Shown one piece after another: positions 2,501-24,999 of a DNA stretch of 64,000 nucleotides (the stretch's first letter is position 1; each line of letters starts with the position of its first letter). The notes under the pieces were generated by a model. That model had not been told where the DNA came from, ran no database searches, and saw nothing but the letters and a program-made list of their open reading frames with translations. The position numbers and the translations under genes are program-made. Origin of the DNA: Candidatus Borrarchaeum weybense (GTDB taxonomy: Archaea > Asgardarchaeota > Sifarchaeia > Borrarchaeales > Borrarchaeaceae); the NCBI GenBank assembly GCA_019057385.1, contig JAHQJS010000006.1, positions 805,038 to 869,037 of the forward strand, read 5' to 3'.

Positions 2501-4072
2501 ATGGATACAGGTGAAAACAGCAGATTTTGGCGTCTATTGGATACAGGTGTACTTACTGGTGCTGAAAACATGGCTCTAGACGCAATATTACTTCAAGAGC
2601 GAAATGGAGTTAATAGCTCCAATATCTTCAGATTTTTACAGTTTTCACCTCCCGTAGTTTTGATTGGATATCACCAAACCGTGGCTCACGAGGTCAGAGT
2701 AAATTACTGTAACTCAAAGGGCATTGATATTAATCGTCGAATTACAGGTGGTGGCGCTATTTTTTTTGATGAATCTCAAGTAGGTTGGGAATTAGTTTTC
2801 AATAGCGAGGATTTAGACGTAGGAAGAAATCTTGAGGATATAACAAAAAAAGTCTGTGAAGGGGCAGTCAGAGGTCTTCAAAAATTAGGTCTAAAGGCGG
2901 AATTTAGACCTAGGAATGATATTGAGGTTAACGGCAAGAAGATATCTGGAACAGGGGGAGTTTTTGAGGATAATGCTTGTCTTTACCAAGGAACTTTGTT
3001 AGTTGACACTGATATGGAAATGATGCTTAAAGCATTGAGGATCCCTATAGAAAAACTAACTAAACGAGGAATTGAATCTGCTAGAGATCGTGTAACCTGT
3101 CTTAAGGAAGAGTTAGGAACTATCCCACCTCTTGAAAAAATTAAAACGGCTTTGCTACAAGGTTTTTCTGAAGAACTTGGTATACAATTCAGACCTGACT
3201 CGCTTACTTCTCATGAACGATCTTTGCTTCAAAGTGAACTTGTTGAAAAAAGATCTGATGACTGGAAAAACCTGATAGTTGAACCTAAAAACTACAGTCA
3301 AATGTTACGATCAATATACAAAGTAGACGGAGGTCTATTAAGGCTAAATCTTCATGTTGATGCAAAAATGCGTTATATTAAGCAAGTTTTAATAACAGGA
3401 GACTTCTTCGTTGATCCAGCGAGGACGGTTTATGACTTAGAAGCTTGTCTTAAAAACACACCAATTGCAGATCTAAAGGAGAATCTCCACGAATTTTTTG
3501 TAGAAAAAAAGCCGAGATTTTTAGGTTTATCTGAAGATGACATCTATCAAGCAATCAACGAGGCACTTGAGAAACTAGAATATGTTGGTCTTAGCATAGA
3601 TGAGGCCAATTCAATATTTGTCGTTAATGATTCATTTAGAAATCTATTGAAAAATAATACGGTTTTACTTCTGCCGTATTGTGCTAAGCTTCCAGATTGC
3701 GAGTTTAGAAACGAAGACTATTGTGCAAGATGTGGAGGCTGCAGCATAGGTGAAGCTTACGATATTGGTCAAGAAAAGAATCTGCGAGTTATAAGTATCT
3801 GCAGTTTTGAGCATCTTGTTGAGACCTTTAAACAGCTCCAAAGTGAAGGTATTCAGTCATATATAGGTTGTTGTTGCGAAGCGTTTTTCGAAAAACGGCA
3901 GAAAGCATTTCGAGAATCTGGGCTCGGCGGTTTACTAATTGATATCGATTCATCCACGTGCTATGAACTCGGTAAAGAGAAAGAAGCGTATGAGGGCGTA
4001 TTTGGTCATCAAACAGACCTAAAACTTGATCTATTAAAAAAAATCATTGAAAACGTTAGAGTTCGCTCATAA
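2501..4072 (+). CDS. Lipoate-protein ligase (LplA/B domains) fused to a Cys-rich DUF116-like domain
   Basis: NMALD, RRITGGGAIF, NDIEVNGKKISGT, ITGDFF motifs; C-terminal LPYCAK..C..CARCGGC..GCCCE. Confidence 0.85.
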   Translation: MDTGENSRFWRLLDTGVLTGAENMALDAILLQERNGVNSSNIFRFLQFSPPVVLIGYHQTVAHEVRVNYCNSKGIDINRRITGGGAIFFDESQVGWELVFNSEDLDVGRNLEDITKKVCEGAVRGLQKLGLKAEFRPRNDIEVNGKKISGTGGVFEDNACLYQGTLLVDTDMEMMLKALRIPIEKLTKRGIESARDRVTCLKEELGTIPPLEKIKTALLQGFSEELGIQFRPDSLTSHERSLLQSELVEKRSDDWKNLIVEPKNYSQMLRSIYKVDGGLLRLNLHVDAKMRYIKQVLITGDFFVDPARTVYDLEACLKNTPIADLKENLHEFFVEKKPRFLGLSEDDIYQAINEALEKLEYVGLSIDEANSIFVVNDSFRNLLKNNTVLLLPYCAKLPDCEFRNEDYCARCGGCSIGEAYDIGQEKNLRVISICSFEHLVETFKQLQSEGIQSYIGCCCEAFFEKRQKAFRESGLGGLLIDIDSSTCYELGKEKEAYEGVFGHQTDLKLDLLKKIIENVRVRS

Positions 4073-13407: not shown

Positions 13408-13875
13408 CTAGTCTATGAATATCTCACTGAAATTATTTCCTCCGAAGAAAGACTTCAAAATCTGTTTCGTATCATCCCATCCTTTATCCAAAAATAATGC
13501 ACCGATCACTGCCTCAATAGTATCTGCAATGACTTTTTGTAATCCGTCTTTCCGAACTCCTCTCATTTGAATTATTTCATCGATTTTTTTTAACATCCCA
13601 ATTTTTGCAAGAAACTCGTCTTTAACGAGGTCCTTTCGCATTTCTGTAAGACTACCTTTATCTTTTTCACTAAATTTCGTATAAAGCAGTTCAGCAATTA
13701 GAAGATCGAGGACTGCATCTCCAAGAAAGGCCAGACGTTCGTTATTTTTGTGATTATTTTTTGGACTACTTGAATGTGTTAATGCTAAATCGAATAAATC
13801 TAAATCATTAAACCGAAGATTGTTTTTCTGAAGCCAAGCGTTGAGTAATTCTTCTCTTAATTTCTCTAAATTCAA
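13408..13875 (-). CDS. Stand-alone ribonuclease III nuclease domain (no dsRBD)
   Basis: ALTHSS, NERLAFLGDAVL, ADTIEAVIGALFLD; 155 aa; TTG start after AGGAGG. Confidence 0.85.
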   Translation of the reverse strand: MNLEKLREELLNAWLQKNNLRFNDLDLFDLALTHSSSPKNNHKNNERLAFLGDAVLDLLIAELLYTKFSEKDKGSLTEMRKDLVKDEFLAKIGMLKKIDEIIQMRGVRKDGLQKVIADTIEAVIGALFLDKGWDDTKQILKSFFGGNNFSEIFID

Positions 13876-14021: not shown

Positions 14022-14891
14022 ATGCCTGAGATAATTTCAAAATTTTTGTCAATCATCGAAACAAGCAGACCGATTATTTGGCTTTTTGCAGTTGGAACGG
14101 CATTTTGTGGAATGCTCATGGCATTGAAAAGCATTCCACCTGTCTTTGAGTTTCTGCTAATGTGCATAGCGATGATTTCTGCAACTTTTTCTGCTAATCT
14201 GGTTAATGCTGCAACTGATGTCGAAGTTGACAAAATTAATAAGCCTAATCGACCGCTTCCTGAAGGCCGAGTAACTGTTCATGAGGCTTTTATGATAGGA
14301 ATCTTTTGTCTAATATTAACTTTAATTATCTCTTTTCTATTTGGAATTGTACCTTTCCTAATTGCTATAGTCGGTCTAACTTTTGCTGTAATTTATTCTG
14401 TTCCACCAATTGCCCTGAAGGAGCGGGGAATTCTAGCTAATATTGCACTGGCATTCAGCTACAGTACACTCATTTTCCTTTGGGGCTGGGCAATAGTTGC
14501 GCCGCTTATCTTAGAATTAACTGTTATCATAATATTGATCTTTCTGCTTATTCAGATCACTGGCGCAAACATAATAAAAGATTTAGTAGACTTTGAAGGT
14601 GATCTTATAAGTAGACGAACGGTTCCAGGTCAATTGGGATTGAAAAAGACAATAATAGTTATTGCACCATTTATGGTAGGGCTTTATTTTCTTATTCCTG
14701 TATTATGGTTGTTCAAAGTTTTTTCATGGCATTATTTACCGATTTCCTTAATGTCGCTATGGGGTATCGCTATAATAGTTTTTTTGTATAAGAACCCATC
14801 AAAGGATCGGCGAATTAAAGCCTTTCTCCACGCTTTTTTCATGTCTTTGTTATCCGAGTTTTTATTTGCTGGTGTCTATGTCCTAAGCTAA
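14022..14891 (+). CDS. UbiA-family prenyltransferase
   Basis: NAATDVEVDKINKPNRPLPEG, YSVPP, KDLVDFEGD motifs; multi-TM. Confidence 0.85.
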   Translation: MPEIISKFLSIIETSRPIIWLFAVGTAFCGMLMALKSIPPVFEFLLMCIAMISATFSANLVNAATDVEVDKINKPNRPLPEGRVTVHEAFMIGIFCLILTLIISFLFGIVPFLIAIVGLTFAVIYSVPPIALKERGILANIALAFSYSTLIFLWGWAIVAPLILELTVIIILIFLLIQITGANIIKDLVDFEGDLISRRTVPGQLGLKKTIIVIAPFMVGLYFLIPVLWLFKVFSWHYLPISLMSLWGIAIIVFLYKNPSKDRRIKAFLHAFFMSLLSEFLFAGVYVLS

Positions 14892-15039
14892 GGTTTTTCT
14901 TAAAATAAAGTCTAAGAAAGTCTGAACTCAAAGCTAGTTTAGAAAAATGTTAACTAACTTCCGATGCAAATTGAAGGTCCGCAATACTTGTATCTTTTGA
15001 TCTACTAACTTTAATTGAATGGCTAGGTCCTTCATAGAA

Positions 15040-16086
15040 TCACCCCAAGGAGACTCCCCTGTTTACCGAGGAGAGGAATTGCGTTCTAAAGGATATCTTT
15101 GTGAGGATGTGACAATCTTCTTTTTTACCGCTTTGTGTAAGTCTTTTTCCAGTTCTTACACAATGTAAACTTAACCGATTGTTCAGATTTCCGCCCACAT
15201 AACATAAACCATGCTTTTTGTGGCATATTAAGGTGCCGCGTTTTAGCCCTAATGAGATTGCCCCGCCGTACCTCTTTCGTATGCCGCCTTGTGAAAACTG
15301 CAGCCGGTGTAACTGTCATCGGTGAAATCGTATCGGTTCTACATAATAGAGGCCGGTTGTAGAAGGATTTTTCGCCCCTGTTATGGCGGCGGCCATTACC
15401 CAAGCATCTACACAATGCGTTTCAAACGCCACCTTTGATTTGTTTGGTGATTTCTTCAGTCCAAAGGCCTCCCGTAATTGTTTGGTTTCGTGGCCTTGCA
15501 TGGTGATGAGGATGAGCCCTAGTTTTTCTAGTTCTGCATAAAAATAGTGTTTACCAACTTCCAGCGGACTGAAATTGCGATTCCAGCCTCGCTGATTTTT
15601 CCGTGTTGTTGCCTTGACATCCTCGCTCACTGCGTATTGTAAGGGCAGGATTTTACACAACTGACGGACAAGTCGCAACTTTGCGTCCCATCTCGCCTTT
15701 GTTGAGGGTGGTAAAAACGTTTTATTATTCCGCCTGTTCTTCTTAGATTTTCTTCGGCGGTTTTTTCTATATCTTCGTACTCTACGCATAATTTTACGCT
15801 GTGCTACTGCCTTTTTTACCCAGTCCACCGCTTTTGACATCAGGTTAAGCACCGTGTCCTCTATTCCGACGACTGAAAACCCCTCGAATTTCGTGCCGGG
15901 ATCTATACCTATTGCTAGTGGCTGTGTGACGGGATGGTTGGGATCGAACTCTAATTGGAGGTAAAATATGCCCAATTTATTACGTTTCTTAATGGCTTTT
16001 CTTTGTTCGAGAAGTTTCCTCGCCTTTGTCGGTCTGCACGGCATTAGTGGTATTCCGCTTTTGCTAACGACAGGAATTCTACCGAT
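15040..16086 (-). pseudogene. isrB: IsrB (HNH-less IscB homolog) with an in-frame TGA at 15316-15318
   Basis: PLMP, RuvC-I IGIDPG, Arg-rich bridge helix, RuvC-II SEDV, RuvC-III THCVDA, no HNH; after RFHR*(TGA) the frame continues QLHRLQFSQGGIRKRYGG...GVSLG* to 15040; no ATG before PLMP (ATC at 16086 after GGGAG). Confidence 0.85.
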
Positions 16087-16326
16087 TGCGGTCTCCCTGC
16101 CCGAGTCGAGTATCCCTTCGCCAATGCCAAGTAGGCTTAGCCTCTTGAGATGAGAGACATGACATTCAGTGGTTCTGTCGAAGAGGAGGGGACTAGGGAG
16201 GCATCCCCGACATTCTTGTAGCCCACAAGGCGTAGTTCTTGAAGTATTTCTTCTGAACTTAGGCTAGTCAAGACTTGTATTGCTACCACCATCACAAGCC
16301 CCGTCCTTCAGGGCGGGGTTCTTGAC
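16087..16326 (-). ncRNA. omegaRNA (HEARO-like) scaffold of the IsrB element
   Basis: GTCAA start, TTGACTAGCCT, GGGATGCCTCCCTAGTCCC, TTGGCGAAGGG motifs directly upstream of isrB. Confidence 0.8.
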
Positions 16327-16605: not shown

Positions 16606-19167
16606 TTAATTTGTAAGTTGAAGATCAACTATGCTTCTATCTGTTCCTCTAGTAACCGTGATTGTGTGGCCAGTGTCTTTAATTGTTTGTGTATGTGTGA
16701 TAAGGAAGATTTGATCGAAGGATTTATTATTCATCAATGCGCTTAATACGCCTTCTCTTCTTTCCGTGTCTAAACTTCCAAGAGGTTCATCTAAAATGAT
16801 TGTTTTAAAATAGATAGGATGTAAACCAGATGAACGAAATGGACGTATATGCCCCATCAATTCTGAGATACCCATTCGTAATGCTAATCCGAGTGCAGCC
16901 TTATCACCACCACTAAGCATGTCTTTATCTTTTTCAAGTCCGTCGACCAAATCGGTAAGTGTTATTGATACACCGTGAGTCTTCCCATGCTTAGTAATCA
17001 AGATCTCATTCATCTTATATTGTCCGTAAGTAAATTGCTGCAGATATTTCGAAACGACACTACGTAATGATTTGAAAAGTTTGTTTTGAATAACTTCTTG
17101 AGAGATAAATTGCTCTAAATATGGTTTAATTAGCACATCATGATGCTTAATAGTTGATTCTTCTTGTCGTATTCGTTTTTCAATGTCGTCTAATTTATTT
17201 ATTTCATCCAATAGTTTATTTAAGCGAATAGTTTCTTCATTAATGTCTTTTTTAAGAGAATTGTATTGGTTAAGTTTCTCTTTCTTTTCTTGAAATAAAA
17301 CTTGAATAGCAGTAATCATATCTTGCAACTTTGTAGCTTTAAATCTCTCTAGTAATCCATTAATGGTATCAACACTTAATTTATTCAAAAGATCCTGTTT
17401 CTGGCTTTCATTTTTTATTTTTTCATTTACTATAATTTCCTGTTCCTGCAAAAGTTTCTGAATTCGATCCTCTTTTTCTTGTATCTTTAATGTTAATCTA
17501 CCGATGTCTGTATTAAATTCTTCCAAACGATCCTTTTTTGATGTAAATTCATTTTTAATGCGTCCAATACTCTCGCTAAGTTCACTTATGTCGCTAATAT
17601 TATATTTAGTTAATAAATCCTCATAAGATGAGACTTCAAATGACTTTAAAAGTCGAGAAACTTCAGTTTCAAGATCTGATAAATTATGGTCTATTTGTTG
17701 GGTTCGTGTTAAACAGTGTGAAATGTTTTCAAGTTTTGAAGAATTCTGTCTAATAATCTCTAAGTTCTCTTTCATGGCACGCATTGAAGTTTCATTTTCT
17801 TGTACAAGTTTTACTAATCGATTGATTTCGTTAGTATAATTCAAGATATCTTTTTCGATTCTCTGAACAACTTCATCCAATTCTTCTTCATCATGGAATG
17901 GAGTGAAACAAGTAGGACAGTCTCCCTTTTCTTTAAGTAATTCTATATTAGATTTTAAACTGGAAATCACACCTCTTTTAGTATTTATTGTTCCCAAGAG
18001 ATCCTTTATCTTTTGTTCGATTTCTGTGAGTGATTTCTGTGCCGTCTCTTCATTATTTTGGAGCGTTTCTCTTTGTATTTTTTCATATTCTATTCTCTGT
18101 TCTAAGGTTTGAGGAAAATCAAAACCAGAACTCGATTTGATAAACTCATCGTCCAGACTTTTAATTTGCTCTGTCAGATTTAGTCGCTTGCTAATCAAAT
18201 TTATCAAAGCAGTAACGCTTTCCAGTGTTGGTAGACTCTTAATCTTTTTTTCAAGAGTTTGAAATTCTTTTTCTTCTTTAGAAAGAGTGTGTTTCTCCTT
18301 TTCTAATTCATTACGATCGTCTTTTAGAATATCATTGAGTATGGAGATTTCTTTTGAGTAACCTTCAACTTGATTTGATGCATTTTTAATTTGCTCGTTT
18401 AATGTTTCTATATTTTGGATATCTTCAATTGTTGGATACTTAACAAGTTTATCATCTAAATGCTGAATAACTTGCTCTAAATTCAATTTATCTTCATTTA
18501 ATTTTTCAATATCCTTTTTAAGTTCAGGTAACAATTCCATTTTTCCTTCAATTCTACTTTTTTCACTCATTAAATCTTGTTGCAGAGTAATATGTTCTTC
18601 TCTCATTTCTTTTAGTTCTTCTTTGATAAGATCAAATTGATCAAGTTGAAATAGTTCTTGAATTTTATTACGAAGTTCTGAGCCGCTTACATTTGCTAGA
18701 TAGTCAATTTCACCTTGACGAACAAAAAATGTGCTGTCCAGTTGTTTCCCATCGCAGTTCATAACAGATTCTAACTTCTTACAAACTGCTTTAGAACCTG
18801 AAATCGGATTGATTAATTGATTTTTCTGATTGTAATCATATATCGTTGCTATTGTCGGTTTGCCACGTGTTTTTTCACGTTTAATTCTATATCTTGCATT
18901 CCCTACTTGAACATCCAATTGTACTTTGCATTTTGCTGCATCTTTTTTAATTAATCGATCTTTTAACTCGTCAATTACTCCACAATCCCTCTTTGATCCC
19001 CACAATCCCCACAAAATCGCTTCGATAAGGCTAGATTTTCCAGATGAATTTCGACCTCTTATTGTGTATAGACCATTTGGCAATTCTGATACATTTGCCG
19101 TTTTGTCTGGTAATTCTAACCTTGAAAATGGTTTAAAATTTTCTACTACAATCGATGAGATCTTCAT
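16606..19167 (-). CDS. rad50: DNA double-strand-break repair ATPase Rad50
   Basis: Walker A GRNSSGKS, Q-loop VRQGE, coiled coils, central CPTC zinc hook, LSGG signature, LDEPLGSLD, LITH. Confidence 0.93.
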   Translation of the reverse strand: MKISSIVVENFKPFSRLELPDKTANVSELPNGLYTIRGRNSSGKSSLIEAILWGLWGSKRDCGVIDELKDRLIKKDAAKCKVQLDVQVGNARYRIKREKTRGKPTIATIYDYNQKNQLINPISGSKAVCKKLESVMNCDGKQLDSTFFVRQGEIDYLANVSGSELRNKIQELFQLDQFDLIKEELKEMREEHITLQQDLMSEKSRIEGKMELLPELKKDIEKLNEDKLNLEQVIQHLDDKLVKYPTIEDIQNIETLNEQIKNASNQVEGYSKEISILNDILKDDRNELEKEKHTLSKEEKEFQTLEKKIKSLPTLESVTALINLISKRLNLTEQIKSLDDEFIKSSSGFDFPQTLEQRIEYEKIQRETLQNNEETAQKSLTEIEQKIKDLLGTINTKRGVISSLKSNIELLKEKGDCPTCFTPFHDEEELDEVVQRIEKDILNYTNEINRLVKLVQENETSMRAMKENLEIIRQNSSKLENISHCLTRTQQIDHNLSDLETEVSRLLKSFEVSSYEDLLTKYNISDISELSESIGRIKNEFTSKKDRLEEFNTDIGRLTLKIQEKEDRIQKLLQEQEIIVNEKIKNESQKQDLLNKLSVDTINGLLERFKATKLQDMITAIQVLFQEKKEKLNQYNSLKKDINEETIRLNKLLDEINKLDDIEKRIRQEESTIKHHDVLIKPYLEQFISQEVIQNKLFKSLRSVVSKYLQQFTYGQYKMNEILITKHGKTHGVSITLTDLVDGLEKDKDMLSGGDKAALGLALRMGISELMGHIRPFRSSGLHPIYFKTIILDEPLGSLDTERREGVLSALMNNKSFDQIFLITHTQTIKDTGHTITVTRGTDRSIVDLQLTN

Positions 19168-19224
19168 TAAGATCGCCTCTGGAGCCTCTTTCCTTTTAAG
19201 CTGGAGAGGAAAGAGGTGCAGAAA

Positions 19225-20427
19225 CTAACATAACGTGAATAATAACCCTTTTCCATATTTTACCAACTTAACGTTTTTAATTGCAATACTTGGATTTTTC
19301 CCTTTAGGATTTTCTAACACAACGCGCTTTCCAAGACAATGAACTCCTTTTACTCTATAGATTTTATTGTTATATTTTACAAGGTCATACGGTTGTAATT
19401 TGTATATCTGTCTCCTAATTGATGGCTTAAACCCTTTTCTATTCTTCTGTAGCGAACGATTATTTCTTCTGATTTGCTTGACCTTATACCGTCGGCAGCG
19501 TTCTTGATTGCTTCCACCAGCAATGACAAACGCATCGCTAACATGCGACTTTTCTAGCCCTAGTTTGGTACGCTGATATTTAGTAACGTATCCGTAGGTA
19601 TGCTCTGCCCCTAACTGCTCAACTATCCTCCAACGGAAAATATTCAAACATGTAGGTGCTTTAAGTGGTTGATTTGCCTGGTGCTGGATGGTAGAATAGC
19701 CAAACTCCTCAGCGGTCTGATTTCCCTTCTTTACATTACAAGTTCTACATGAGATTGTCAAATTAGACACTCGATCTGACCCACCTCTGCTTTTAGGAAT
19801 AATATGCTCGACTTCTAAAGGGATATCCTTTTTACCACAATAAGCACATGTTCGCCCCCACTTGTCTAACAGGTATTCCTTGACTTCGTAACCCTGAAGT
19901 TCACCCTGCTGATATGCTATGCCTGTAATTTCTGGCTGCTGCATTTTTTGAGTGTCGAAATTGGCTACTTCTACCCTTTTGTAGGTTATCGGTAGTATTG
20001 TTTCAAGCTTCGCAACTAATCTAATATGTGAATCTAATCTATGTTGATTACTAGGTGCTAACCATCCTTTAGGTCTTGTTCGGTTATTAAATCGAGGTGA
20101 TCTATACCCTAATCTTCTTCTACGGGCTTTGCGATACATCCGTCGTTCTTCTAGTTTTTGAGGCATATCTTTCCGAAGTGTTACTGTCCCACTTATGAGC
20201 TCTAACTTGTCGTTTTTGGCACTAAAACCGATGTTCGTATATCCGAGGTCCACTCCAAGTGTAATCGGTTGCCTAGTTTCTCCGGTGGAATAGTTCAACT
20301 GAATGGTAAAAGGGCATCTCTGAACAACGTGTGCCTTGCCGTCTCGTAGTAATTTCTTTCCTTTGGGTTGTGTAGTAGGCATGAGAGGTTGCCCTCTCAT
20401 GTTCAACACATAGATAGGTACTCTCAA
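19225..20427 (-). CDS. iscB: RNA-guided endonuclease IscB, apparently intact
   Basis: PLMP, RuvC-I LGVDLG, bridge helix RRMYRKARRRR, RuvC-II VEVANFD, HNH CAYC..EHIIPKSRGGSDRVSNL..C..CN, RuvC-III SHVSDA. Confidence 0.95.
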   Translation of the reverse strand: MRVPIYVLNMRGQPLMPTTQPKGKKLLRDGKAHVVQRCPFTIQLNYSTGETRQPITLGVDLGYTNIGFSAKNDKLELISGTVTLRKDMPQKLEERRMYRKARRRRLGYRSPRFNNRTRPKGWLAPSNQHRLDSHIRLVAKLETILPITYKRVEVANFDTQKMQQPEITGIAYQQGELQGYEVKEYLLDKWGRTCAYCGKKDIPLEVEHIIPKSRGGSDRVSNLTISCRTCNVKKGNQTAEEFGYSTIQHQANQPLKAPTCLNIFRWRIVEQLGAEHTYGYVTKYQRTKLGLEKSHVSDAFVIAGGSNQERCRRYKVKQIRRNNRSLQKNRKGFKPSIRRQIYKLQPYDLVKYNNKIYRVKGVHCLGKRVVLENPKGKNPSIAIKNVKLVKYGKGLLFTLC

Positions 20428-20699
20428 GTCCTATCTCCTCCTTTAAATTGCTTTAAAGTCGGTTGGTTCTCTTCGCCAAGGTTATCAGTCAGTACTCTAC
20501 GATGATCACTGAGAGTTTCCTCTCTGTTTAAACCACCGTTTACAGAGCAAGGGACTAGAGAAGCATCCCGTGGTGTGTTCTTTAACTCTCCTGATAACAT
20601 AGATATCGTCATAAACTATATGACCTCTCTTAGGCTAATCAACTAATTGCTCTTACTCCTCACGGAATAAGCCCCTACCTTTTGGGTGGGGTATTTGAC
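20428..20699 (-). ncRNA. omegaRNA (HEARO) scaffold of the IscB element
   Basis: GTCAA 5' hairpin, GTTGATTAGCCT, GGGATGCTTCTCTAGTCCC, TGGCGAAGAG motifs upstream of iscB. Confidence 0.85.
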
Positions 20700-21973
20700 G
20701 CTTCCTCTACTCTTTTCACTGCATCAGAAAAAAGCCTAATGAGTAGATCTATATCATAATCTTCAGGTGATATCTTTTCAATGAATTTTCTAAAATCTTT
20801 TTCTGGATTTTCGATTAGATACTCAACTTCTTCTCCAGGTTTAAGCTCCAAGTCTTCTGCAATAGGATCTGATATTCTGCCTATTGAGAATTGGAGTATG
20901 TTATAATCATCCTTTCGCATTATTTCATTATATAACTCAGTTAGTTCTGCATTGAAGCGTGCCCAGAATGTATGAGGCATATCGCCTTTCACACCAATTT
21001 TGACACGAAACGCTGAATCAAAATCAAATCCAGTAGCTAATTTGTGTGTGTTGAGATACTTTTGTACTTTTTCAATTACCGCTGAAGGAGGATCGTCAGT
21101 ATTTGCATCAATTATCGTAGAAAGCATAGGTCGCGAATCAAGGGTGATAGATGTAACATTGGGTAGTTCATCATGTTCTGCTTGTACCTCTAATATTACT
21201 TTTTCTTGATCTGATTCATCAAAACGCCAACGCTCTATTGCTCCTGCATTATAGGCTTTTTTGCTAATTTTTTCAAAATGATGATTATGTCCGACCGCTA
21301 AATAATCAAAATCTATATCAAGAAGTTCTGCTGGCAAAGTTTCATCTAGTTTCATTCCATGGGTTACACCTATTTCTGTAACACCTTTATTTGAAGTATT
21401 GTAAGTTTTCAGCCAATTTAAATACTCATCTTTAGCATCTTCGCTAAGTGATCCAAGATATTTTTTATTAACGAATGGAAAACAATGAATTACACAGTCT
21501 TTTTCGTTGAGATTGTAGATCAATTGTTTTTTGTTCCCTTGCAAGACGTTTATTAGGTCATCCCAAAATGTAAAGACCTTCACATTTTCTAGAACTTCAA
21601 AACTCTGTATCGTTGAAGTCCTTCGGGAATGAAAAATGCCATGATTTCCATCTATTATGATCGTTGGAATGCCTGCACGATCTAATCTTTTAAGTCCTTT
21701 AACTGCGATGTTCCGAGAAGCCTCAGACGGTGGATAAGGATGTCTTAAAAAGGGGTAATGATAGAAATCGCCGCTATGAACAATAAAATCAATTTCATCC
21801 TTTTTTTCAAGCGCATATGTAATAATCTTCCAATAGGCCCTTGCAAAATCAAATTCAATTGGTTGGAAGTTCATATTGAGATATTTTATTGTCATATGTC
21901 GGACATCGCTTGAAGTGCACCCAAGATGGGTATCTGAAACATGCAAAAAGTTGACCATTATGAAGTTCCTCAT
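20675..21973 (-). CDS. mre11: Mre11 nuclease; the last 7 residues are encoded by the IS end
   Basis: SDTHLG, SGDFY, GNH, THG, GHNH phosphoesterase motifs; operon position. Confidence 0.88.
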   Translation of the reverse strand: MRNFIMVNFLHVSDTHLGCTSSDVRHMTIKYLNMNFQPIEFDFARAYWKIITYALEKKDEIDFIVHSGDFYHYPFLRHPYPPSEASRNIAVKGLKRLDRAGIPTIIIDGNHGIFHSRRTSTIQSFEVLENVKVFTFWDDLINVLQGNKKQLIYNLNEKDCVIHCFPFVNKKYLGSLSEDAKDEYLNWLKTYNTSNKGVTEIGVTHGMKLDETLPAELLDIDFDYLAVGHNHHFEKISKKAYNAGAIERWRFDESDQEKVILEVQAEHDELPNVTSITLDSRPMLSTIIDANTDDPPSAVIEKVQKYLNTHKLATGFDFDSAFRVKIGVKGDMPHTFWARFNAELTELYNEIMRKDDYNILQFSIGRISDPIAEDLELKPGEEVEYLIENPEKDFRKFIEKISPEDYDIDLLIRLFSDAVKRVEEASNTPPKR

Positions 21974-23721
21974 TACAGTATAACTTTTGGATCCTTAGCA
22001 TCTTTAATGGTAGTATATTTTGCACTATCCTTTTTAAAACGATCGTCAAAGAGAGGTACATGAACAACAAAAGGAAGATCACGATAACTTGCTGTTACAA
22101 CAGCTTCTCCACGATCTAATACCTTAAATTCACTCTCAAAGTCTGAAATGTCTCTGCTAGCTGCTTTTATGGCTAATCGTATTTCATCAGCATTTCCAAG
22201 TGCTAAAACAATTTGTGTGTTAAGTTGACTCAATAGAGCGGGATTAATCGATGAAACTTGTTGACTTATGACCGCCAAACCGATTCCAAACTTTCTGCCT
22301 TGACGGGAAATAGCTTTATAGACATTACCTTCAAATCTCATTAGATCTGGAGTGAGAATAGAGGGTGCTTCTTCCACAGTTATGAGAATAGGAACAAGCT
22401 CTGAAGTGTCTTTTACTGTAGTTTGATCTTTTAAGTAGAACTTTTGTATCAAGTTTTTTTGTGAAAAGTCTTTTCTAATGCATTCAGATAAATCACGCGT
22501 TGCAATTTGCTTCTTTAGGATATCTAGTGTATTACTGGATTTTACTGCTTTGCGCAGTTCAAAAACTGTGCGCGCAATTATTGTTGTGCTGAGAAATTGC
22601 TCCCTTTGACTCGTAATGCTTGTATTGAATAATAATACACGCCCCATCTCAAGGGCAGAAACAACATCTAACAGATTTGAACCAGTGTAGCCATCACGAA
22701 AAATGTTAGATCGTCTTAAGAAGGCCAAGTATCTTTCGACAGCATTAACTGTTGCATCCATAAAACCTTGCGCGTCTCCAACATTATTTATCCATTCGTC
22801 ACCGTAAACTGCATGTAGTGAATACATATAAGCTATTTGTGGTGGGGTAAATTGATGGATAGACATAAGATCAATTGGCAGTATCTCTTGTAAGGAAATT
22901 TTGAGTTTTTTAGCATATCTTTGGACATCCCTTGCTGTAGCATCGATACTAGTGGTTAGGTAATAGAAATCGCCAAAAAGCTCACGTCGTACTTTGCTTG
23001 AGCGACTGTCGATTTCATCTATGATATCTTGTATTCCAAACTTTCCTGTCCCTAATGCATATTCATCATGTGGATCGATTGTTAAGAGAGTTATTCTATC
23101 TTCAATACCGTTTAAATAACATTGAAGGTTGTAATCTATGAAGGATTTTGTGATAACCTGCATTAGATTAGATTTTCCAGAGCCAGTAGCACCAAAAATA
23201 CCAACGTGCATTGGAATTTTTCCTTTCGGTATCATAACATCAATATTGAGACTTTCTTCACCTACCAGTAAGTCCCCGACAAATATATCGCCTGAAAGTT
23301 GTGATGCTAAAATATCCTTCAAAGAATCTTCGTTTTGAACTTTCTGAACTTTATAGATTGCTGAAAAATGTTCAGGTAGTCGTCTAGCTTTTTTGAAAAC
23401 GAATTTATTGTCTTTATCATGGTATTTGCCATATCCTAATAGACTTCCTTCGACAGCAATGAGTTTTTCCTCTTCCAAATTAGCAAGATATGCGTCTTTT
23501 TCGACAACCAAGGTTTCAGCAACGGTATCAATAGAGCTGAGTCGTCTTATTATATTCTCAAAATTACTTATACGAAAAATAAAATACCGATACTCACCTC
23601 TCGAAGATGGAATAAGAAAGATGTCTCCTACAGAAAGATCTTCATTTTTTGTAATAACAACAAGTTTTCCTAAATGCCCTCCGGCTAAGACGCCAAATGG
23701 CATACCTAGATCTAATTCCAA
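21973..23721 (-). CDS. herA: HerA helicase/ATPase
   Basis: HAS-like N-terminus, GATGSGKS, DPHDEY, VEEAP, RQGRKFGIGL..ISQ. Confidence 0.88.
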   Translation of the reverse strand: MELDLGMPFGVLAGGHLGKLVVITKNEDLSVGDIFLIPSSRGEYRYFIFRISNFENIIRRLSSIDTVAETLVVEKDAYLANLEEEKLIAVEGSLLGYGKYHDKDNKFVFKKARRLPEHFSAIYKVQKVQNEDSLKDILASQLSGDIFVGDLLVGEESLNIDVMIPKGKIPMHVGIFGATGSGKSNLMQVITKSFIDYNLQCYLNGIEDRITLLTIDPHDEYALGTGKFGIQDIIDEIDSRSSKVRRELFGDFYYLTTSIDATARDVQRYAKKLKISLQEILPIDLMSIHQFTPPQIAYMYSLHAVYGDEWINNVGDAQGFMDATVNAVERYLAFLRRSNIFRDGYTGSNLLDVVSALEMGRVLLFNTSITSQREQFLSTTIIARTVFELRKAVKSSNTLDILKKQIATRDLSECIRKDFSQKNLIQKFYLKDQTTVKDTSELVPILITVEEAPSILTPDLMRFEGNVYKAISRQGRKFGIGLAVISQQVSSINPALLSQLNTQIVLALGNADEIRLAIKAASRDISDFESEFKVLDRGEAVVTASYRDLPFVVHVPLFDDRFKKDSAKYTTIKDAKDPKVIL

Positions 23722-23733
23722 GTTTGCTCATCC

Positions 23734-24999
23734 TCACAATCCTATTTTTTTCCTAGCTGATATTAAATGTTCTTCCTTTATGCCTAATTCTTTTGCAATT
23801 TGTATTGCCCTACTAGTTAAAACCTCACGAACGATGTGAGTTAGAGTACATTTTTTATGAGCGAATCCAGGTGGACAAGGATAGCCATACCAGTTTGCTT
23901 CATGGCTCATGAAGTCAAGTTCTCTAAATAGTTTCATTTCACGGTTCTTCATTTTTTCTTTATCTTCATTGAAAATAGACTTCATCCACCAAAAATAGTC
24001 AAAGTCGATTCTAAATATCGGAGAAGTCTCAGAAAACTTGAAAATATAAGTAACTGCCATAGCAGGGGGTATTTCTCGATTTTCATAGATAGTGAGTTTC
24101 CCTTGCGGATCTTCACGACCTGGTATTCGACAAAACCAATGTGCATGGGATCCAAAACGCTCTTTAGCAATATCTGAAATTTGCGTGGCTCCAGGAAGTG
24201 TATGTGTTTTGCTCAATCCACAGACAATGATATCGCGTTTTCTTGAAGTTAAACATAGATCTCTAAGAAGATAATCCCCAATTGGCACTTTCTGTCTGCC
24301 TGGTGGAAAAATTGTTAATGATCCATCGAGAATAAGATATTTTATTGGTAAATCACTAAGTACAACCTGTTTTGCCAGACTATATTCCGCAATTTCTCGT
24401 ACCGATTGAAGTATGTTATCCTCCTGCAGTGGACTTGGGAATAGAATATAATTTAGTAGTTCCGATGCGATTTTTTTAATTAATTTATTTTTATCAGTGA
24501 TTTGTAATTCCTCTGGATCCCATTCTGAATACTCCGTCATATGTGAGAGAATTGGATCAACTAAATCTGGCATTGGGTAGACTGACTCACAAAAATCAAT
24601 TAATTGTTGAATGAAAAGCGATCGATCCGCTGAAAAGTTAAAAACTTTCGTTAATAGTCCATTATTTGGAATTACGTCATCTAAAGCTATAAATTTCATT
24701 GGTTTGTTTTCATGTGTATTTGTATTGTGAATTACAGTCGCTGCTGTCACTAATTGTATAAAATTGTCTTCAAAATTACAAAGAGAAGATATACCACTTC
24801 CGTCTACCGCTGCAACTAAAAAATCATCATCAAATTTATGTGCAAATGGAAACGGCTCAAATTTCATTAATAGGTTTTCTAATCTCTGTAAATCTTGATT
24901 TAGTTTTTTAGCTTGAGATATGCTCCTTTCCTTAAGAAGTTTGAAAGTCTCTCGCATCTCTTCATCAAAAGTTTTCGAAAAAAAATTGTCTATGGACAA
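23734..24999 (-). CDS. nurA: NurA nuclease
   Basis: AAVDGS, LILDGSL, GLSKT, GYPCPPGFAH motifs; upstream of herA. Confidence 0.88.
   Translation of the reverse strand: MSIDNFFSKTFDEEMRETFKLLKERSISQAKKLNQDLQRLENLLMKFEPFPFAHKFDDDFLVAAVDGSGISSLCNFEDNFIQLVTAATVIHNTNTHENKPMKFIALDDVIPNNGLLTKVFNFSADRSLFIQQLIDFCESVYPMPDLVDPILSHMTEYSEWDPEELQITDKNKLIKKIASELLNYILFPSPLQEDNILQSVREIAEYSLAKQVVLSDLPIKYLILDGSLTIFPPGRQKVPIGDYLLRDLCLTSRKRDIIVCGLSKTHTLPGATQISDIAKERFGSHAHWFCRIPGREDPQGKLTIYENREIPPAMAVTYIFKFSETSPIFRIDFDYFWWMKSIFNEDKEKMKNREMKLFRELDFMSHEANWYGYPCPPGFAHKKCTLTHIVREVLTSRAIQIAKELGIKEEHLISARKKIGL

Follow-up and report, generated by a model that had tools for sequence, protein, structure and literature searches.

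A 1,532 bp insertion encoding an IscB nuclease and its omegaRNA lies precisely where the genes for Mre11 and Rad50 meet in the Asgard archaeon Candidatus Borrarchaeum weybense. The locus falls within a 64,000-nucleotide (nt) stretch of contig JAHQJS010000006.1 (forward-strand positions 805,038 to 869,037; hereafter the window), and all coordinates below are positions in that window unless a contig is named. We consider it very probable that this is a non-autonomous IscB element of the IS200/IS605 type docked at the ATGA overlap between the mre11 stop codon and the rad50 start codon, with a guide templated by the surrounding operon and retained at the site by RNA-guided cleavage. The element belongs to a known kind, and the logic of its target-adjacent motif (TAM) and guide is known biology. 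New to us is a wider pattern, in which related elements dock at start codons and carry a host-type ribosome-binding motif in the element end. The genome studied (G000; 4.18 Mb in 8 contigs, 37% G+C) was compared with four relatives of the same genus (G001 to G004). The features on which the argument depends are as follows.

16606 to 19167, minus strand: rad50, 853 aa; Pfam AAA_23 and SMC_N above cut-off, NCBIfam Rad50 models at 6e-39
19163 to 19167, minus strand: ATGAA (TTCAT on the plus strand), the putative TAM/target motif and the rad50 start; in the empty site also the mre11 TGA stop
19168 to 20699, minus strand: non-autonomous IS200/IS605-type IscB element, 1,532 bp, supported by about 10 full-length copies and 7 empty sites
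19176 to 19179, minus strand: GAGG in the element end, 12 nt ahead of the rad50 ATG
19185 to 19216, no strand assigned: subterminal hairpin of the TAM-side end, with two 9-nt arms and a 14-nt loop; an equivalent is present in all sister copies
19225 to 20427, minus strand: iscB, 400 aa; Pfam RRXRR 1e-58 and HNH 5e-14, NCBIfam guided_IscB 3.9e-111
20462 to 20699, minus strand: omegaRNA scaffold (HEARO, RF02033); Rfam 124.7 bits, E 1.5e-26, covering model positions 1-211 of 211
20675 to 21973, minus strand: mre11, 432 aa; Pfam Metallophos 1.3e-8, with NCBIfam Mre11/SbcD matches
20700 to 20719, minus strand: omegaRNA guide template, the last 20 nt of native mre11, ending in GTAGAGGAAGC directly 5' of the first scaffold base; the guide length is putative

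Boundaries of the element and its empty site

When 19168-20699 is deleted, the two genes are restored to a continuous junction in which GTAGAGGAAGC runs directly into ATGAAGATC. A preliminary description of the window, made from the letters alone, had proposed these limits, and other copies in the genome place them at the same bases. All copies start with GTCAA(T/A/C)TACCCC behind 5' flanks that are mutually unrelated, and five copies of the subfamily end in GCGAT plus 4 nt, followed by ATGAA in 5/5 cases and by unrelated flanks beyond. With shared ends set between unrelated flanks, the element is therefore 19168 to 20699. On the gene strand, the insertion point lies between GAGGAAGC and ATGAAG, and on the plus strand directly 3' of TTCAT. 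Assigning the ATGAA to the element was ruled out, as every empty site retains it as the rad50 start.

The empty site was found in every close relative. Mre11 was searched in 40 relatives, and the four same-genus genomes gave close orthologues (90-96% identical) that align only to residue 425/426. Their junctions read GAGGAAAC followed by ATGAAGATC in one genome, GAAGACAC followed by ATGAAAATT in two, and GAAGAAGC followed by ATGAAAATT in another. A degenerate junction pattern able to match occupied and empty sites alike was run on metagenome contigs and returned three further empty junctions; no second occupied mre11/rad50 junction was found in the four genomes or in these contigs. Occupied and empty sites differ by exactly 19168-20699, and in 7/7 empty sites (4 genomes and 3 contigs) the mre11 TGA overlaps the rad50 ATG. 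The overlap had been predicted from the occupied sequence, and all junctions found in relatives are of this overlapping rather than spaced form. Judged from these sequences, the ATGA overlap is ancestral and the insertion lineage-specific. Since its boundaries are set by about 30 other genome copies and by empty sites, the arrangement is not a chance pattern.

Both host reading frames remain open. The element's omegaRNA scaffold supplies the final 7 codons and the stop of mre11 (20675 to 20698), so that Mre11 has 432 aa here against 425 aa in the relatives, the difference being the tail SNTPPKR noted in the preliminary description. The last native codon, for alanine, has undergone a silent change from GCA to GCG upon insertion, and rad50 is unaltered and keeps its own ATG.

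The nuclease and its omegaRNA

The omegaRNA scaffold, whose score is well above the HEARO gathering score of 83 bits, adjoins iscB on its upstream side, and by comparison with the other copies and the empty sites its first base is also the first base of the element. The iscB start codon is TTG, with GGAGG ahead of it. At the N-terminus of IscB, PLMP occupies residues 14-17 within a Pfam RRXRR match spanning residues 5-175. The residues of the split RuvC are present (D60 in GVDLG, E153 in VEVANFD, and H295/D298 in SHVSDA), as are those of the HNH domain inserted into it, for which Pfam HNH and HNH_5 match at residues 194-243 (C194xxC, H208, N222 and C227xxC). These motifs align to those of solved IscB structures (E ~1e-40 to 1e-45), in agreement with the earlier reading of both nuclease domains as intact. 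Between iscB and its paralogues the ratio of nonsynonymous to synonymous divergence (dN/dS) is 0.11-0.20 at dS 0.63-1.45; this purifying selection is measured between transposon copies, not at the mre11/rad50 locus.

The ends have the traits of IS200/IS605 elements, with subterminal hairpins at both, neither target duplication nor terminal inverted repeats, and TTCAT beside one end only. No gene for a Y1 (HUH) TnpA transposase lies inside the element, which is thus non-autonomous, as are most iscB elements. The outer 31 nt of the omegaRNA, a stretch that includes a hairpin, are identical at 26/31 positions to the right end of the only tnpA-tnpB IS605 in the genome. This insertion sequence (IS), on contig C7, also holds the only Y1 transposase gene (PF01797) in G000.

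Guide, target motif and retention

The flank directly 5' of the first scaffold base consists of the last bases of mre11, and the preliminary description had correctly named these as the guide template. The guide suffix followed by ATGA has no other occurrence in the genome. ATGA(A) is the predicted TAM: it flanks all sister copies and all empty sites, as had been expected for it, and it is matched by the motif of a characterized system. Meers et al. (bioRxiv 10.1101/2023.03.14.532601) reported that IscB omegaRNAs come from the right end of the transposon, that the guide is encoded outside the element and requires outside transcription, and that genes upstream of IscB are biased towards the same orientation. 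In the same study, GstIscB and its TnpA were both found to recognise TTCAT, of which ATGAA here is the reverse complement, and cleavage of the donor joint was found to force recombinational reinstallation of the element. The TAM call and the inference of co-transcription therefore agree with published biology, and hence neither is new; the idea of a guide supplied by host read-through has already appeared in print as a general inference. Co-transcription with the operon would fit this published logic, and it fits the absence of any run of five or more T on the sense strand within the element.

We propose the following life cycle. The guide would be templated by the last 16-20 nt of mre11 and, since its template is the 3' end of that gene, only transcription entering from the operon could make it. 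IscB-omegaRNA would recognise the guide match together with ATGA(A), a combination present in the empty site alone. A Y1 TnpA supplied in trans would excise the element, IscB-omegaRNA would then cut the empty site, and homologous recombination would put the element back. The site may have been kept as one of the few ATGA sites at which an inserted element would be transcribed without disrupting any gene or preventing translation of the one downstream.

Docking at start codons across the genome

In all, 36 HEARO matches were detected in G000, and about 10 further full-length copies of the element are 76-85% identical to it. Both ends could be defined for 30 HEARO elements (with manual placement of three ends and exclusion of six HEARO loci), comprising full IscB elements, one IsrB-like element and about 17 protein-less elements of 360-415 nt. 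They are flanked by ATGA(N) in 16 cases, ATAAA in 10, GTGA in 3 and ATCAA in 1. We scored an element as docked at a start codon when the ATG of its motif opens an open reading frame (ORF) of at least 100 codons without a long upstream extension. By this measure, 7/16 ATGA elements are docked; the TGA of the motif closes an upstream ORF in 3/16, and 2/16 lie on stop/start overlaps, namely mre11/rad50 and a 112-codon ORF/HEPN pair. For the null expectation, the genome contains 49,829 ATGA sites, of which 12,758 lie outside long ORFs, 1,320 are at such starts and 75 at such overlaps. Docking at start codons is enriched relative to all ATGA sites (P 8.5e-8) and relative to non-genic ATGA sites (7/15 observed, 1.55 expected, P 4e-4), and docking at overlaps is likewise enriched (2/16, P 3e-3). 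The suggestion that ATGA overlaps act as safe harbours for such elements thus gains statistical support.

Behind the docked elements lie real genes, whose products are HEPN, FKBP26, a GT2 glycosyltransferase, an SF1 helicase and an HTH protein, and the reconstructed empty sites of the HEPN- and FKBP-docked elements are present in relatives. The second ATGA overlap carries a protein-less omegaRNA element (G000:C4:1252929-1253329, minus strand) between the 112-codon ORF and the HEPN gene, and G003 has the corresponding empty site apart from a single mismatch. Three ATAAA elements are located 4-6 nt ahead of a start codon. In the four relatives, where 25/51 loci were scored with ends located by BLAST, five or six of the 16 ATGA elements scored are at starts under a lenient count. 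Within the library covered by our literature search, there was no report of start-codon or ATGA docking, or of a Shine-Dalgarno motif in IscB/IS605 ends.

A possible ribosome-binding motif in the element end

The element end provides a GAGG before the rad50 ATG, and the preliminary description's sighting of it can be placed at 19176 to 19179. In long ORFs of G000, the distance from GAGG to the first ATG is most often 11-12 nt, with 137 and 96 counts where the background is about 8. It stands at -11 or -12 from the motif in 14/20 RTGA/ATCA elements and at -8/-9 in 8/10 ATAAA omegaRNA elements, and it is equally frequent in docked (6/8) and undocked (8/12) copies. TnpB-type left ends, which share the hairpin foot and the ATAAA motif, have it in 0/11 cases.

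We tentatively suggest that in this lineage the IS200/IS605 elements of omegaRNA type, whether IscB, IsrB-like or protein-less, have adapted to dock at start codons and to hand translation back to the host gene through GAGG. A docked element would then behave as an extra cistron, with the host promoter or operon transcribing both guide and nuclease, and ATGA stop/start overlaps would be ideal docking sites. In IS200/IS605 ends, short sequences beside the hairpin help TnpA to choose its cleavage site, as established for IS608. It is also quite possible that GAGG is a structural feature or one recognised by the transposase, that its Shine-Dalgarno-like spacing is coincidental, and that docking reflects only the purging of insertions that disrupt genes. 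The similar frequency of GAGG in docked and undocked copies, which are related by descent, agrees with such a role. Against such a role, GAGG is absent from all TnpB-type ends yet present in 8/10 omegaRNA-type ends with the same foot and motif; in addition, the -11/-12 position coincides with the host Shine-Dalgarno peak, and start-codon docking exceeds expectation even outside long ORFs. To us the distribution of GAGG leans, with some hesitation, towards a translational rather than a transposase-recognition role. However, the copies share descent, and docked and undocked copies keep GAGG alike.

Alternative explanations for the locus

Several points weigh against a docked, operon-guided and retained element. 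Nearby on the sense strand, the only run of at least five T is a T6 in mre11 (20728-20733), 29 nt ahead of the element, which could terminate some archaeal transcripts; the empty-site relatives share this run. A scan for sigma-70 promoters and intrinsic terminators gave hits at the level of shuffled sequence, with models that are uninformative for an archaeon. The left end of the sole tnpA-bearing IS aligns only weakly, with gaps, to the element's TAM-side end, and mobilisation by the C7 TnpA is therefore not assured. Recent activity is unproven, given that the nearest copy is only 86% identical and no donor is seen. Co-transcription, guide length and IscB activity are all matters that we infer. 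As for docking, the relatives taken alone give 3/12 at starts in a strict non-orthologous count (P 0.12, not significant), and the gene model behind the enrichment test is a crude one built on ORFs, while the elements counted are few and related by descent.

Some of these points would also suit an inert relic, that is, an old insertion by a now-lost TnpA that neither excises nor homes, makes no guide and is tolerated as harmless. Across the five genus genomes no donor copy exceeds 86% identity (dS 0.63 or more), the one TnpA in 4.18 Mb belongs to an element with a dissimilar left end, and 2/11 paralogous iscB copies contain a stop. Against this, the ORF of the copy at mre11/rad50 is complete, none of its catalytic residues is missing and its omegaRNA is full-length. 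The site is also empty in species with a 96% identical Mre11, which places the insertion after their divergence. The lack of a surviving donor copy also fits non-replicative peel-and-paste movement, under which the donor is expected to be absent. We therefore regard a relic as unlikely.

The preliminary description had gone further and presented the element as embedded in, and expressed with, the machinery that repairs its own breaks. Under a separate reading, recruitment by the host, IscB or its RNA would be a regulated part of the nurA-herA-mre11-rad50 break-repair module rather than a selfish passenger; the element is indeed co-oriented with the operon and tightly embedded in it, without an internal T-run, and purifying selection has in the past acted on its intact iscB. 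That selection, however, reflects transposon copies rather than this locus, the site is empty in the four relatives of the genus and in three metagenome contigs, and the other HEARO elements, about 35 in number, have unrelated surroundings, which makes recruitment highly improbable. The link to the repair machinery was overstated: the case consists of a single lineage-specific insertion out of about 36 elements, at a site that is empty in every relative found, and a functional link to break repair is unsupported. The location of the element within a break-repair operon is most likely incidental. Finally, an assembly artefact, with a repeat misplaced between mre11 and rad50, might be entertained given the many related copies in the genome and a contamination score of 7%, but it is scarcely credible for a copy that has a sequence of its own (at most 86% identity to any other), has base-exact junctions obeying the family's GTCAA start and ATGA flank, and is bordered by frames that match the empty site precisely.

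Comparison with known systems

The closest described counterpart is GstIscB/ISGst5 of Geobacillus stearothermophilus (bioRxiv 10.1101/2023.03.14.532601), likewise a non-autonomous IS200/IS605 element with a HEARO-type omegaRNA at its right end upstream of iscB, a guide outside the element, the TAM TTCAT and a co-oriented upstream gene. Unlike GstIscB, the element described here resides in an Asgard archaeon, sits exactly on a stop/start overlap, has a TAM-side end with a host-type GAGG and is known from sequence. With OgeuIscB and the solved IscB-omegaRNA complexes (PDB 7XHT, 7UTN, 8CSZ and 9K30) it shares the PLMP/RRXRR N-terminus, the split RuvC with inserted HNH, and the conserved D/E/H..D and HNH residues, with sequence matches at E 1e-40 to 1e-45, whereas IscB here has 400 aa against about 496 aa. 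The TAM reported for OgeuIscB is NWRRNA, compared with ATGA(N) here. The omegaRNA is a full-length match to HEARO RNA (RF02033) directly upstream of an HNH-bearing ORF, with no substantive difference.

A further parallel, drawn by Meers et al. (bioRxiv 10.1101/2023.03.14.532601), is with the homing endonuclease genes that reside in the group I introns and inteins of conserved genes. As in those systems, a selfish nuclease insert leaves the host products usable and would cut the empty allele. Unlike homing endonucleases, IscB recognises its target through an RNA guide set by the flank, and movement needs a separate Y1 transposase; moreover, the host genes are spared by docking between ORFs rather than by splicing.

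The host operon and related elements

The remaining genes of the operon lie upstream of mre11.

21973 to 23721, minus strand: herA helicase gene; Pfam DUF87/HerA central domain 1.6e-14, NCBIfam helicase_HerA 1.5e-25, under the equivalog cut-off
23734 to 24999, minus strand: nurA-like gene, first in the operon; Pfam NurA at E 4.9e-4 and 20.1 bits, short of the cut-off of 21

The four genes nurA-herA-mre11-rad50 are contiguous and all on the minus strand, and the 3' end of herA overlaps the start of mre11 by one base. Family-level matches are clear for Rad50, HerA and Mre11; that for NurA is sub-threshold, and the name nurA is based mainly on the gene's location ahead of herA-mre11-rad50. The Pfam match to the rad50 zinc hook is also sub-threshold. 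None of the operon proteins reaches an NCBIfam equivalog cut-off, which is expected for a divergent Asgard lineage.

A second omegaRNA element (15036 to 16326, minus strand) starts about 280 nt past the rad50 stop. Its HEARO match (16105 to 16326) scores 80.1 bits, just below the gathering score, and its IsrB-like ORF (15316 to 16044, 242 aa), which has the RRXRR domain only, may be frameshifted with an ORF at 15125 to 15415. ATGAA follows the final bases of the element, GGGGTGATTCT. In G001 an orthologous copy (locus L101), whose guide is nearly identical, is likewise located after rad50, so this insertion is older than that of the IscB element. Downstream of both elements are genes for an RNase III-domain protein (13408 to 13875, minus strand, 155 aa) and a UbiA prenyltransferase (14022 to 14891, plus strand, 289 aa).

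The protein-less elements (about 17, of 360-415 nt) have a full HEARO, a few codons from the start of an IscB/IsrB gene and the hairpin of the TAM-side end, as for example at G000:C7:124223-124620, C4:319852-320258 and C6:872756-873116. Guide flanks differ from one such element to the next, the motif is ATGA(N) or ATAAA, and they would need both IscB/IsrB and TnpA in trans. One of them forms a tandem pair with a full IscB element (G000:C4:705592-705994 and C4:704025-705554, 37 nt apart), in which the spacer begins with the ATAAA flanking the protein-less element and ends as the guide flank of the IscB element.

The locus of the tnpA-tnpB IS605 on contig C7 (G000:C7:192721-196086) holds the only Y1 tnpA, and the 10-mer ATAGACTTGG occurs twice at this locus, inside the left part (~1389-1398 of the locus) and directly after the right end (3167-3176). 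A second TnpB family, with 11 loci in G000 and proteins of about 378 aa, is roughly 30% identical to the IS605 TnpB. The left ends of this family have the hairpin foot and TTTAT/ATAAA motif common to ATAAA-type omegaRNA elements, which suggests that one transposase may serve both.

Significance

The mre11/rad50 locus illustrates the IscB life cycle in nature with unusual clarity, as the guide template, the TAM, and the empty and occupied sites are all readable. It documents active-looking IscB elements in an Asgard archaeon, alongside IsrB-like and omegaRNA-only relatives. The presence of the mre11/rad50 element in a double-strand-break repair operon is a striking coincidence, and nothing shows that it is relevant. 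The observation of most value for follow-up is the docking of elements with an ATG-containing TAM at start codons and stop/start overlaps, together with the ribosome-binding motif of host type that their ends carry. If true, the combination of such a TAM with a ribosome-binding end would explain both how these elements persist at low cost in gene-dense genomes and how they obtain transcription from outside, which their guide needs.

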